DNA from: an uncultured Candidatus Bathyarchaeia archaeon
GTDB lineage: Archaea > Thermoproteota > Bathyarchaeia > Hecatellales > Hecatellaceae
Direction of reading: 5' to 3'
NCBI GenBank assembly: GCA_964569845.1
Contig: CAZMUQ010000004.1
Coordinates: 1-61,270 of the forward strand
DNA length: 61,270 nt
How positions within the stretch are numbered: position 1 is the stretch's first letter; each line of letters starts with the position of its first letter. A program made the position numbers and the translations under genes. Under the pieces are notes generated by a model that saw only the letters and a list, made by a program, of their open reading frames with translations, was not told where the DNA came from and made no database searches. This document shows, piece by piece, positions 2,235-53,840 of the stretch.

Positions 2235-3512
2235 TTACCTTCTCATTAAATCAACAAGTTTAGGCATAAGCTCAGGCCCGTTTAACAAACCTAGACTTCC
2301 TTTTTCACATGCTTTTTCACTAAAGCTTAAAACTTCATCAGGTTTAATATCTCCACCAGCAATTAATAGAGGAACAGGGTCATCAGTATGAGCTTTAAAT
2401 GTGCATGGTGTTGAATGATCTGCTGTTACAACAACAATAGTTTTTTTAAGGTTTAGATTTGGAAGAATTTCTCCAAAGAAGTATTTATCTATGAGAGTTA
2501 TAATTTCCATCTTCTCCTCACATTTACCTTTATGCCCAGGTTCATCAGGCCCCTTAATATGAATGTACACTCCATCAAGATTTTCTATGGATTCTAAAAC
2601 TTTCTTAGCTCTTAACTTGTAATCCTCCTTAAGATTTCCAGTTGAAGGTGGAAGAGGAATCTCAACCATTCCACAAAGAAGAGCTATTCCTTTTTCAACA
2701 GGCATTTCAGCCATAAACCCGAAGGTTATATTGTAAAGCTTTTTAAAACTTGGAAACTTTGGTACCGTACTTCCAGCATCCCTTGAAAGTATAATGTTTG
2801 CTGGAAGCTTACCCTCAGCAATTCTTTTAGCATTAACTTCATGCCTACTTAAAACGTCAAAACTTTTCTCGGTAAACTCATTTACAAGCTTTGCTGCCAA
2901 GTCAGCTTCAACACTATCATCTAACGGCTTACATTTTTCAACTTTTAAGATGCCCTCAGCTTTTGCAACAGATATATCTCCAACTCTTACATAAGCAGGA
3001 TCAATGTTTGAAATTTTCCCAGATAATTTACCATCCAACCTTTTTATGATAAGAACAGCCCTATAACCAATAGTATTTTTAAAGATGAATTCAGCTGGCG
3101 TAGATACCAGCTTAACTTCCCTATTTACAGATTCTGCAAGTTTTAAAGCTTCATCAAATGTTAGATCTCCACCACTTCTCCTATCAATAATTCTCCAATT
3201 GTTATCCACACTTGCAAAATTGCATCTAAGTGCTAACATACCATCCTCGATTTTTAAGCCTACACCATAAGCCTCTAAAACTCCCCGTGATGAAGAATAT
3301 TGTAAAGGATCGTAACCTAAGATACTTATAACTGCTGTATCAGATTCAGGTGCGAAACCTTTTCTTATAGGAAACATAAGCCCTGTTTTACCATTTTTAG
3401 CCAAAAAATCCATGTTTAAAGTTTCAGCAGCTTCAAGTGGTGTTTTTCCATTAAGACTAGGTGAGGGTCTATCTCCAAGACCATCTAAAACAACATATAG
3501 AAGCTTCTTCAA
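2235..3512 (-). CDS. apgM: 2,3-bisphosphoglycerate-independent phosphoglycerate mutase (archaeal type)
   Basis: VLDGLGD, PESD, KGPDEPGH and TADHSTP metal-binding motifs. Confidence 0.92.
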   Translation of the reverse strand: MKKLLYVVLDGLGDRPSPSLNGKTPLEAAETLNMDFLAKNGKTGLMFPIRKGFAPESDTAVISILGYDPLQYSSSRGVLEAYGVGLKIEDGMLALRCNFASVDNNWRIIDRRSGGDLTFDEALKLAESVNREVKLVSTPAEFIFKNTIGYRAVLIIKRLDGKLSGKISNIDPAYVRVGDISVAKAEGILKVEKCKPLDDSVEADLAAKLVNEFTEKSFDVLSRHEVNAKRIAEGKLPANIILSRDAGSTVPKFPSFKKLYNITFGFMAEMPVEKGIALLCGMVEIPLPPSTGNLKEDYKLRAKKVLESIENLDGVYIHIKGPDEPGHKGKCEEKMEIITLIDKYFFGEILPNLNLKKTIVVVTADHSTPCTFKAHTDDPVPLLIAGGDIKPDEVLSFSEKACEKGSLGLLNGPELMPKLVDLMRR

Positions 3513-51077: not shown

Positions 51078-52271
51078 TTAAGCTTTAGCTATAACTTCAA
51101 TAGTTGTTTGACTTGTTGTTGCTAACTCAACTCCACCTCTAAAACCCTGTTTTGAAGAAACATTTTTTAGTTTAACCTTTAAACCCAATGGAAGCTTTGA
51201 AAGTATTTCTGCATGGTCACGCCAAGCTGAAACCTTAATTTCTCCGGTTTCATCCTTTAATAAAAACTCATAAATCTTAACTTTACTACCATCCTTTAAA
51301 GTTACATCTCTAACTCCAAAACTATCTTCAATTACACCTTCAATGGTTAAACCTCTAAGATTTGGTTGGATTTCCTCAATTTTTAAAACTTTTTCTTCAA
51401 CTTTTTCTGTTGAAGGCACAACTTTAACTCTTGAACGTTTACTTAAATGTGCCTCTAAACCTCCAAACATATTTTCTTTAATTCTGCTTCCAAAAATTTC
51501 AAGCTTATCTCCGATTTTAACATCTTTAATTTCATCAACTTTACTATCCCAAAAAACAACATCAACTTCCCCAGTTTCATCTTTAACTTTAACTCTTTGA
51601 ACTTTTCCTTCACCAACAATTCTTTTAAAAAGTTTAACAGGAGAAATGCTTATAACCACACCTTTAAAGTTGAAATCTTTTAGGCCGCTTTTCATCTCTG
51701 AAATTTTACCAAAAAACTCCTCATACTCTGGAATTTCAACCTCAGCAAGATCCGGAGATTCTAGAGTTATTCTACCCTTTTCTCCTAGATGAAGCTCAAC
51801 TTTACCATCAACAGAAAGCCTAGAGTATGCATGTTCAATCTTGACTATGCTGTTAACTTTAACCTCCTGCTCCTCTAAATCCTTAACCTTACCATTCCAA
51901 ACATAAACTTCAACAGTTCCAGTTTCATCTCCAATAAGAATTCTTCTTAAAACACCTTGAGAACCATTACTTCTCTTAAACTTTTGCAGAGGATTAATTG
52001 CTAAAACACGTCCATAAACTGTGACATCATTAAGCCCTGAAACAAGATTTCCAATTCTCATTCTCCTAGAAATTTTAGTATCACTAGTTAAAGAAACACC
52101 AAGTTCAGTAGCAACAAGAAAAGCCGCACCCTCAAAATTTAAAAGATTTTTAGCTTCGATTCTTTTCTCCTCAATAAGTCTAAAAACATCCTCTCTTGTA
52201 AGGTTAGGCTTCTCCTTTAAAATTCTCTTAACAATATCCTCAAGACTATAAGAAAAAACTCCCTGACTCAA
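51078..52271 (-). CDS. rpa: Replication protein A (three OB folds)
   Basis: N-terminal helical domain and three DETG-containing OB repeats. Confidence 0.88.
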   Translation of the reverse strand: MSQGVFSYSLEDIVKRILKEKPNLTREDVFRLIEEKRIEAKNLLNFEGAAFLVATELGVSLTSDTKISRRMRIGNLVSGLNDVTVYGRVLAINPLQKFKRSNGSQGVLRRILIGDETGTVEVYVWNGKVKDLEEQEVKVNSIVKIEHAYSRLSVDGKVELHLGEKGRITLESPDLAEVEIPEYEEFFGKISEMKSGLKDFNFKGVVISISPVKLFKRIVGEGKVQRVKVKDETGEVDVVFWDSKVDEIKDVKIGDKLEIFGSRIKENMFGGLEAHLSKRSRVKVVPSTEKVEEKVLKIEEIQPNLRGLTIEGVIEDSFGVRDVTLKDGSKVKIYEFLLKDETGEIKVSAWRDHAEILSKLPLGLKVKLKNVSSKQGFRGGVELATTSQTTIEVIAKA

Positions 52272-52340
52272 CAGTCTTCAACCCTTAAACAACAAGAAGA
52301 AGAGGAAGGCAAAAAAGTTAACTATTTAGAAAAAGGAGAA

Positions 52341-52570
52341 GCTAACCCCCTCTGGGTCTTGGTTGGGGGTAATTTACCGGCTTCCGCCTGGCTCCCGTCT
52401 ACACCGGTAAATTTCCCCACCCATCACAGTTACACCCAGGCGGGTTTGCTTGGGGTTTCCGAGCCCAGCCCCCAAGCCAAACTAGACGGGATGTAACTGT
52501 GAGAGGGGCTTGTGCCAGCCAACATAAAAATGCTGGCTGAACACAAGACCAAGCTTACCTGGAGGTTAGC
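52341..52570 (-). ncRNA. Unassigned highly structured RNA with terminal BHB-like stem and two pseudoknots
   Basis: GC-rich island in an AT-rich genome; eight helices of 6-12 bp identified by eye; pyrimidine/T tract follows on the minus strand; strand inferred from G-U pairs and BHB polarity. Confidence 0.72.
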
Positions 52571-52679
52571 TGAATTTAAGTTGTTTTCTAAGCCTAATAT
52601 TGTTTATCGATAAAATCGTGAAAAAAGTTGCTTTAAGGGTTACTTTTGATTAACTGAGTATAGGTAAAAGAGGTTTTGT

Positions 52680-52693
52680 CGAAAATTTTATAT
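52680..52693 (+). promoter_or_regulatory. BRE + TATA promoter for the small RNA / fau-1 leader
   Basis: CGAAAA-TTTTATAT; predicted start at about 52718, exactly where the duplicated 31-mer begins. Confidence 0.65.
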
Positions 52694-52717
52694 TTGTAAG
52701 TCGATTTTAGTATATTT

Positions 52718-52768
52718 GAGCCTAGCCCCCAAGCTAAACTAGATGGGAGGGGGGCGTTAAGCCCCCTT
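52718..52768 (+). ncRNA. Small RNA: 31-nt copy of the structured-RNA core plus an 8-bp hairpin
   Basis: 28/31 identity to 52461-52491; hairpin AGGGGGGC-GTTAA-GCCCCCTT followed by T-rich tracts. Confidence 0.6.
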
Positions 52769-52823
52769 AAAACTTTTCTAACACAAGTTTTTTCTTCTTT
52801 TTAGGTTTTGCTGACTTCTTTAG

Positions 52824-53840
52824 GTGAACTATTTGGCTAGCAGATTTAAGGTTGAAGTTAGAGGAATCTATTCTACAGCTCTTACTAGCCTCCTTTCTAA
52901 GGAGTTTGAAGTTGTTAGGATGTCTGGGAAAATTAGGAAAAGATTTAATGTTAACCATGTTTCCCAAGATTTTGGAGATGTTTCCATTTTTGATAGGGAT
53001 GACAAACAAGGAGTTGTTATTCTTGGAATTTTTGAAGCTGCTGAGGCTGTTGTAGATTTTTTAAGAAGAAAACTTCCAGATGTTGTTGTTAGAGAAAAAG
53101 GTGTTAAAGGTTGGTTTGGCTATGGGCATTTTAACGTTGAATTTCCATATTTATCAAAGAGATTTTTAGATGAGGAAAGAAGTAAAATTGTTCCAACAGC
53201 AAACTTACACCATAGATTTAGAGTTTTTGCCTCAGATATTCTTGATGAAGCTGAAAAAATGCTTACTGTATACCCTGAAAAAAGATGCGAAATCGAAGAG
53301 GAGCTTAAAAAGCTTTTAAAATTTAGTGTTGGATGCGAAATTGAGGTTCAACATGTTAAAGTTTTTGGTGGAAGCATCAAGCTTAAGGGTTCTATTGTTG
53401 AAGTTAACTATCTTTTAAAGGTTAAAAGAACATTTAAGGGTTCAGGTTTTTATGATGGCTTGGACATCAAGAAGGAAGAAGGAGATTATGCAATAACTGA
53501 GATTGCTGAAGGCTCGTGGATAACAAAACATTCATATTATAGTTTTGATGGAAAACTTAAAGGAGAATTTTACAATATAAATACTCCAACAGAACTTTAC
53601 CCTTCAAAAGCTAGATATGTAGATCTTGAAGTTGATGTTGTAAAAATTCCAGGTCAAAGACCAAAAATCATTGATAAAGATAAGCTTACAATTCTAGTTG
53701 AAAATAAATGTATTAATGAAGATTTAGCAAGAATAGTTTTGGAAAAAGCTGAAAAACTCTCTAAAATGCTTCAAAAAGGTGAAGAATTATCCATTCTTGA
53801 TGATGAGATTAAACCTTTAGCTTTAAATCTTAGTGCTTAA
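52824..53840 (+). CDS. FAU-1-like RNA-binding protein/ribonuclease (DUF402), shortened
   Basis: VRGIYSTALT, H.VK, YDGL, GDYAITE, GEFYNINTP.E.YP...RYVDLEVDVV. Confidence 0.85.
   Translation: MNYLASRFKVEVRGIYSTALTSLLSKEFEVVRMSGKIRKRFNVNHVSQDFGDVSIFDRDDKQGVVILGIFEAAEAVVDFLRRKLPDVVVREKGVKGWFGYGHFNVEFPYLSKRFLDEERSKIVPTANLHHRFRVFASDILDEAEKMLTVYPEKRCEIEEELKKLLKFSVGCEIEVQHVKVFGGSIKLKGSIVEVNYLLKVKRTFKGSGFYDGLDIKKEEGDYAITEIAEGSWITKHSYYSFDGKLKGEFYNINTPTELYPSKARYVDLEVDVVKIPGQRPKIIDKDKLTILVENKCINEDLARIVLEKAEKLSKMLQKGEELSILDDEIKPLALNLSA

Follow-up and report, generated by a model that had tools for sequence, protein, structure and literature searches.

The window, i.e., the whole stretch of 61,270 nt analysed here, belongs to a genome of 34% GC that homologues of its FAU-1 gene place in the Bathyarchaeota. 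Within it, we studied a 561-nt intergenic region between an RPA-like OB-fold gene (51078-52271, minus strand) and a DUF402/FAU-1-like gene (PF04167; 52833-53840, plus strand; 335 aa as called in relatives). For the latter, two start codons are available (GTG at 52824, TTG at 52833), accompanied by a Shine-Dalgarno sequence AGGTGA at 52822-52827. Since the GTG falls inside this Shine-Dalgarno-like motif, the gene probably starts at the TTG. The intergenic region holds a large GC-rich structured RNA (52334-52571, minus strand), which has the RPA-like gene downstream of it, and a short second copy of a piece of the RNA's own gene (52718-52748) in front of FAU-1.

The large structured RNA

The large RNA spans about 238 nt and is predicted to form a four-way junction, made up of closing helices (P1/P2) and the hairpins A, B and C. 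Its GC content is 58%, and the GC-rich island it occupies (52321-52574) is the only such island in the window. With regard to its orientation, the fold z-score is -7.2 for the minus strand vs. -5.6 for the plus strand. Furthermore, three sites that are polymorphic among strains (52348, 52538 and 52540) preserve pairing when read on the minus strand, where they correspond to U-G/U-A, A-U/G-U and U-G/C-G exchanges, while on the plus strand one allele of each site results in a C.A mismatch. Because the polymorphisms keep pairing only in this orientation, the large RNA is a minus-strand RNA, and the copy read on the plus strand is therefore antisense to it. An earlier sequence-only reading of this DNA had considered both orientations; its minus-strand option is the one supported here. 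We also considered the island as an ORB/replication origin and rejected this reading, since the polymorphisms obey RNA pairing rules.

The 23-nt terminal loop of hairpin C is perfectly complementary to the internal loop of hairpin B on both of its strands. That is, UAGACGGGA of the C loop is complementary to UCCCGUCUA (9 nt) and CCAGGCGG to CCGCCUGG (8 nt); such joint 9 + 8 nt complementarity was observed in 0/20000 shuffles. The segment of the RNA gene that recurs in front of FAU-1 (52461-52491) lies inside hairpin B, where it covers UCCCGUCUA (the predicted pseudoknot strand), the 5' side of the apical stem and most of the apical loop (nine bases). The predicted fold thus agrees with the sequence-only reading, which had assigned a hairpin loop, one stem strand and one pseudoknot strand to this segment.

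We next compared the locus with known RNA families. At gathering thresholds, Rfam gave 0 matches over the window, for the large and the small RNA alike. When the large RNA was searched up to E 10, the best match was a sub-threshold hit to an unrelated Enterococcus sRNA (25 bits, threshold 61). A tRNA/tmRNA scan returned no hit, and a literature search on Bathyarchaeota non-coding RNAs returned no paper. Hgc RNAs are GC-rich non-coding RNAs of AT-rich archaea that were found by GC-content screens. The large RNA resembles them in being a GC island within a 34% GC genome, but it has no match to the HgcC/E/F/G families of Rfam. This unclassified RNA is arguably a more notable object than the copy.

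Two further observations concern the surroundings of the large RNA. The contigs of three assemblies from independent metagenomes (L012, L017 and L020) all end inside hairpin A (~52509-52513 equivalents), which suggests that coverage or assembly breaks off in this structured, GC-rich region. In addition, a palindromic, GTTAAC-centred AT-rich element (52311-52324 on the plus strand, 52315-52335 on the minus strand) is conserved in the closest relative outside the species (L001, see below). Read on the minus strand, it resembles a promoter of the RPA-like gene, situated just beyond the 3' terminus of the large RNA; in the plus-strand direction, in which it matches 12/14 consensus positions, it would start a transcript antisense to the entire large RNA.

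A 31-nt repeat in front of the FAU-1 gene

The segments 52461-52491 (GAGCCCAGCCCCCAAGCCAAACTAGACGGGA) and 52718-52748 (GAGCCTAGCCCCCAAGCTAAACTAGATGGGA) form a direct repeat with 28/31 identical positions, 257 nt apart from start to start and with 226 bp between the copies. They are the only two matches of the 31-mer in the window when up to 3 mismatches are allowed, compared to none in 100 shuffles. The repeat described in the sequence-only reading is hence present and is genuine rather than a chance similarity. Neither the large RNA nor the 31-mer has further copies in the window, and the 7-kb loci of relatives hold none beyond an orthologous relic. The three differences (copy positions 6, 18 and 27) are all C in the large RNA's gene and T in the small copy. 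With 12 C and 8 G on the plus strand of the 31-nt segment, three GC>AT changes fall on C throughout with a probability of ~0.2. Thus, the C>T pattern, to which weight had been given before, is not significant on its own and provides no evidence; moreover, the species itself is polymorphic at two of these three sites.

We also assessed the extent of the duplication. Its left boundary is sharp, as the sequence before 52718 does not resemble the source. On the other side, there is a collinear but poor alignment of 52749-52823 with 52492-52571 (the remainder of the RNA's 5' part, minus sense), with an 11-nt gap directly after the 31-mer. The score of this flank alignment is of marginal significance, ranking among the top 2.2-4.6% of equal-sized windows of the 61 kb and being reached in 0-18 of 1000 shuffles, such that homology beyond the 31-mer is suggestive, not established. 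If the flank similarity is true, the 31-mer has been kept far better than its flank, via conversion or selection; if it is false, only 31 nt were copied. A tandem duplication of 257 bp was rejected because the spacer is unlike the FAU-1 start. The copy was likewise rejected as an original 5' half of the RNA left in place, since no room for a promoter would remain before the conserved N-terminus of FAU-1.

For the search for promoters, we scored both strands of the window against the archaeal BRE+TATA consensus RNWAAW+TTTAWATA (14 positions). As claimed in the sequence-only reading, a BRE/TATA match precedes the copy: GAAAATTTTATATT at 52681-52694 (plus strand) agrees in 13/14 positions and has its TATA centre ~27 nt before 52718. 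Given the usual archaeal TATA-to-start distance, we infer a transcription start at ~52716-52719, i.e., on the first base of the copy. Matches of at least 13/14 occur 10 times in the window, 7 of them within coding sequence and 3 in the 8.5 kb of non-coding sequence. Consensus matches are common at 34% GC, so the match alone is weak evidence and no proof of a promoter. The chance of a non-coding 13/14 match at the right distance (within 3 nt) is estimated at ~0.001-0.02. The BRE/TATA match is part of the distal one of two tandem promoter-like units of 19 nt each (52678-52696 and 52700-52718, plus strand), which follow a 22-nt period; the proximal unit ends on the first base of the 31-mer. A duplication of the 19-nt unit would shift the start 22 nt upstream, such that the entire copy would be transcribed. 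Upstream of the large RNA, the best BRE/TATA-like match is the same AT-rich element read backwards (52697, 11/14); the large RNA and the plus-strand unit may share a bidirectional promoter region.

The copy adjoins a GC-rich hairpin of 8 bp (52748-52768, plus strand; AGGGGGGC GUUAA GCCCCCUU), which is followed by the T tracts T4 (52774-77), T6 (52788-93) and T5 (52798-802), in line with what had been read from the sequence before. Perfect GC-rich hairpins (at least 6 bp, 5 of them G-C) occur four times in the 61 kb, and this one alone is intergenic. Apart from a single-base deletion in a contig of 2x coverage, it is invariant among strains. Copy and hairpin together form a 49-nt block of 65% GC that is intact in a 34% GC genome. 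The T tracts may act as archaeal terminators, or they may belong to the promoter or leader of FAU-1. They are conserved in L001 (the 80% relative), whose FAU-1 expression they must allow.

The distance from the TATA element to the FAU-1 start is 134-143 nt, compared to 20-105 nt for other plausible promoters of the window. The spacing is thus ~49 nt too long, which equals the size of copy plus hairpin. The long distance therefore fits an extra element of ~49 nt or a separate transcript. Alternatively, since relatives with 55% identical FAU-1 have TATA-like boxes 85-95 nt upstream of this gene, the promoter may simply be the FAU-1 promoter, with the 49-nt block inserted at the head of the leader. 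When treated as an mRNA leader, the region shows nothing special in its fold (z = 0.03). From the suggested role as a regulatory leader of FAU-1, the location beside the gene stands, but the link is positional only, and the order of the RPA-like and FAU-1 genes predates the RNA.

Relatives and strain variation

Nine more assemblies of the same species (L003, L011-L017, L020) were found by FAU-1 genes of 99% identity. The resulting 10 strain-level assemblies are 98-99% identical; all of them have the copy, and all that reach far enough also have the large RNA. The carrier contigs stem from ERZ1742239, ERZ27248328, ERZ26872901, SRR6823441, SRR7051320 and JGI 3300021472. The next relative (80% FAU-1 identity; L001/L002, GCA_052246955.1) has the same gene order with an intergenic region of 238 bp (2763-3000), which contains what is left of the large RNA's 3' half, an AT-rich remnant with gaps of 5, 11 and 2 nt. 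Here, a deletion of ~300 bp has removed the 5' half of the RNA together with spacer and promoters, as well as the small copy in large part or entirely, and has fused the RNA remnant to the hairpin/T-tract region, in which the GC hairpin has decayed too. The deletion does not date the copy, i.e., its junction (ACACC joined to AGAT..GGGAGG) fits the end of the small copy and CAGGCGGG of the large RNA alike, so this approach was dropped. At ~55% identity (L004-L006), the RPA-like and FAU-1 genes are adjacent with short AT-rich spacers and without the RNA. Because L001 keeps a remnant while the 55% relatives have none, the RNA reached the locus in the ancestor of the window and L001 lineages and was lost in one of them afterwards. 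By the same comparison, the two genes became neighbours before the RNA arrived.

No other carriers were found when we scanned GTDB genomes, JGI metagenomes and viral contigs with patterns of the 31-mer core and the C loop; two genome hits were 22-nt chance matches in high-GC bacteria and were discarded along with four viral hits, also chance. The locus has no blastn match in phage and plasmid collections, and relatives at intermediate distance that keep the large RNA were not found. Among the sequences searched, the large RNA and the copy are thus known from one species-level clade only.

We then studied variation among the ten assemblies. The intergenic region has 13 variable sites in 561 nt and FAU-1 has 21 in 1008 nt, while the 31-nt copy has 2 (52723 and 52744). 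With 2/31 vs. 13/561 and 21/1008, the copy is no less variable than its surroundings, and a sign of purifying selection is therefore not apparent. The two sites form two haplotypes without intermediates, namely T,T in seven assemblies and C,C in three, whereas 52735 is T in all. Since 52723 and 52744 are polymorphic and 52735 is not, the ancestral small copy was one base off its source, and two further C>T changes arose in the window's haplotype. In the plus-strand antisense duplex, pairing would be kept as G-U at the three differences and at both polymorphic sites of the copy. At two sites of the spacer (52637 and 52670), strains show every one of the four possible allele pairs, pointing to recombination in the population or to recurrent mutation.

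One assembly (L011; ERZ26872901 NODE_315) has three private changes in the large RNA, two of which (52460 and 52478) introduce the bases of the small copy. These correspond to positions -1 and 18 of the repeat, and both copies thereby become identical (32/32). By random substitution, such a pattern is expected with a probability of ~1e-4 (estimate). The sequence is a single SPAdes contig of 6x coverage, with both sites within one 21-mer. Possible causes are gene conversion from the small to the large copy, selection for pairing or an assembly artefact. The sequence-only reading had proposed to look for co-variation of the two segments in relatives; this is the one case that fits, but conversion or artefact explains it at least as well.

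Possible function of the copy

To the large RNA, a plus-strand transcript of the copy would bind in a 31-bp duplex with a computed energy of -65.7 kcal/mol, in which each of the three differences becomes a G-U pair, as the sequence-only reading had stated. Opening the sites for the full duplex costs 6.9 kcal/mol in the small and 23.1 kcal/mol in the large RNA, and co-folding is favoured over the separate folds by ~27 kcal/mol. According to the predicted structures, the plus-strand RNA is unpaired in its first ten bases and the apical loop of hairpin B is open. Accordingly, a nine-base contact between loop and 5' tail yields -17.4 kcal/mol at opening costs of just 0.7 (small RNA) and 1.7 kcal/mol (large RNA). 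The derived T,T haplotype weakens this nucleation contact. For the claimed invasion and unfolding of the large RNA, both the strong predicted duplex and the accessible nucleation site hold up, but the evidence for selection is weak.

On this basis, our main reading is that the copy is the antisense 5' segment of a plus-strand transcript, be it a small RNA or the leader of FAU-1, that could invade hairpin B; we assign this reading a probability of roughly 0.4. It is favoured because the copy starts at the predicted start site and adjoins the sole intergenic GC hairpin, and because this hairpin has decayed too in the 80% relative, in which the large RNA is dead. In detail, a 31-nt piece of the RNA gene would have been copied to the first transcribed bases of a divergent plus-strand unit driven by the BRE/TATA element at 52681-52694. 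If the transcript ends at the T tracts, it would be a small RNA of ~60-85 nt, composed of a 31-nt antisense head, the GC hairpin and a U tail; alternatively, it would run on into FAU-1 and form the 5' leader of that mRNA. With its first 9-10 nt, which are predicted to be unpaired, the transcript would touch the open apical loop of hairpin B, and the duplex could extend from there along the apical stem into UCCCGUCUA, the strand that would otherwise pair with the hairpin C loop. The completed 31-bp duplex would unfold hairpin B and break the B-C contact, such that one of the two RNAs would be inactivated, sequestered or destabilised, with control being conceivable in either direction. A wider claim, i.e., an archaeal two-RNA switch in which an antisense RNA derived from a fragment of the RNA's own gene is made from a bidirectional promoter region and controls fold or stability of the large RNA, with dinQ/agrB-like architecture but a non-coding target, we consider rather unlikely.

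Among the competing explanations, a neutral origin deserves most attention, and we regard it as a serious though doubtful possibility. Here, a fragment of the RNA gene (31 nt, possibly ~110 nt at first) would have been copied near the FAU-1 promoter by a repair or replication accident and be functionless, with its similarity kept by occasional gene conversion with the source 257 bp away. The promoter would then be that of FAU-1, and hairpin and T tracts would be older features of its leader, which is compatible with the hairpin- and T-tract-like sequence in L001 and with the TATA-like boxes of the 55% relatives, by which a long FAU-1 leader is normal. The identity block ending at a breakpoint on one side and at the 11-nt gap on the other suits a copying accident, as does the weak collinear similarity past the copy (top 2-5% of windows), but the latter is marginal. 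Likewise, the change to 32/32 identity in L011 (~1e-4 by chance) is what gene conversion would leave behind, yet it comes from a single 6x-coverage assembly. The variability of the copy is not reduced, as expected for a relic. On the other hand, a random insertion into a 250-nt spacer would have to fit both the start site with the copy's start and the hairpin with its end, a coincidence of ~0.03, and the 49-nt block of 65% GC has stayed intact in an AT-rich genome while the sister lineage lost it. With regard to the antisense transcript of our main reading, a variant in which the copy is transcribed in the sense of the large RNA (within a long precursor or alone) and competes for the 3' strand of B or for the hairpin C loop seems quite improbable. 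In minus sense, the copy does fold into a 9-bp hairpin of its own, in which two of the three differences turn G-U into A-U pairs, and a BRE/TATA-like match exists on the minus strand at 52811. This match is weak (11/14), however, and past the copy no clear T tracts are seen on that strand. Furthermore, the A at 52744 (minus sense) results in an A.C mismatch with the hairpin C loop in 7/10 assemblies, and such a transcript is predicted to pair far less strongly with the large RNA (-35 kcal/mol) than the plus-strand one.

The repeat could also act at the level of DNA, as a recombination or protein-binding site, i.e., a duplicated att core or two operators of one regulator; we consider this improbable. 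Integrative elements in tRNA or ncRNA genes leave att-site direct repeats of a few tens of bp, and 31 bp is a usual size for att cores. The repeat is similar in that it is short and direct, has one copy inside an RNA gene and shows a sharp left boundary. In addition, compared with the 55% relatives, the RNA locus as a whole is inserted sequence, and the sister lineage carries a 300-bp deletion spanning the inter-repeat region. But the 226-bp interval holds no ORF, and thus neither an integrase nor an element body; it comprises the 5' part of the RNA gene, which is co-adapted with the 3' part, and the promoter. No mobile-element genes were seen among the neighbours (RPA, DUF402, deacetylases), phage, plasmid and viral collections gave no match, and the deletion in L001 does not run from repeat to repeat. 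A type I toxin-antitoxin system of the dinQ/agrB or tisB/istR kind, with the large RNA as toxin mRNA and the small RNA as antitoxin, would be laid out in exactly this way, down to the 31 nt with which the small RNA begins (5' end). The large RNA's sole ORF (40 aa, 52430-52552, minus strand) has a partly hydrophobic N-terminus, but its hydrophobic run of only ~13 residues is below membrane-spanning length. Each of the three strain substitutions that fall in this ORF is non-synonymous, with Ser>Pro and Ala>Asp affecting the hydrophobic stretch, so that a coding role is unlikely; the changes instead conform to the pairing of the RNA. A conserved small hydrophobic peptide is thus not found, and we rejected the toxin reading as very improbable indeed.

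Beyond the toxin question, the arrangement can be related to known RNA pairs. In tisB/istR-1, shoB/ohsC and zorO/orzO, a divergent neighbouring small RNA with short near-perfect complementarity blocks the active form of its target; these blocks are of 18-21 nt and act on toxin translation, whereas no translation is involved here. Anti-sRNAs or RNA sponges (AgvB, SroC, 3'ETS-leuZ) are short RNAs or mRNA pieces that titrate or destabilise a regulatory RNA. They mimic target sites of Hfq-dependent sRNAs via short seeds, in contrast to a 31-nt copy of the RNA's own gene. The closest relation is to dinQ/agrA-agrB of E. coli, where divergent, non-overlapping RNAs are encoded in one intergenic region and their complementarity stems from a direct repeat (PMC3567139). 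There, the complementary 31 nt (30/31 for agrB, 25/31 for agrA) are at the very 5' end of the small RNA, and agrB has its own promoter, a hairpin terminator and a structured target RNA of ~330 nt (PMC3567139). In our locus, divergent neighbours are likewise complementary via a direct repeat (28/31, with a minus-strand large RNA and -65.7 kcal/mol for the copy if transcribed on the plus strand), and the 31 nt are at the predicted 5' end of the small RNA. By analogy, the layout proposed for the antisense pair appears to be the same as in this established system. It differs in that the target is non-coding, pseudoknotted and without a conserved toxin ORF, and in that the host is archaeal, with BRE/TATA and oligo-T signals and a single small unit.

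If the copy is a relic, it is a tidy short repeat kept alike by gene conversion, and the main interest is in the large RNA. If, in contrast, the small RNA is made and pairs as predicted, archaea would offer a clear example of a trans-encoded antisense RNA that acts on a structured non-coding RNA rather than on an mRNA. This would also mean that a regulator can arise in one step, i.e., by copying a gene fragment behind a neighbouring promoter, and such a natural inhibitor or partner would provide a handle on the large RNA of this uncultured phylum.
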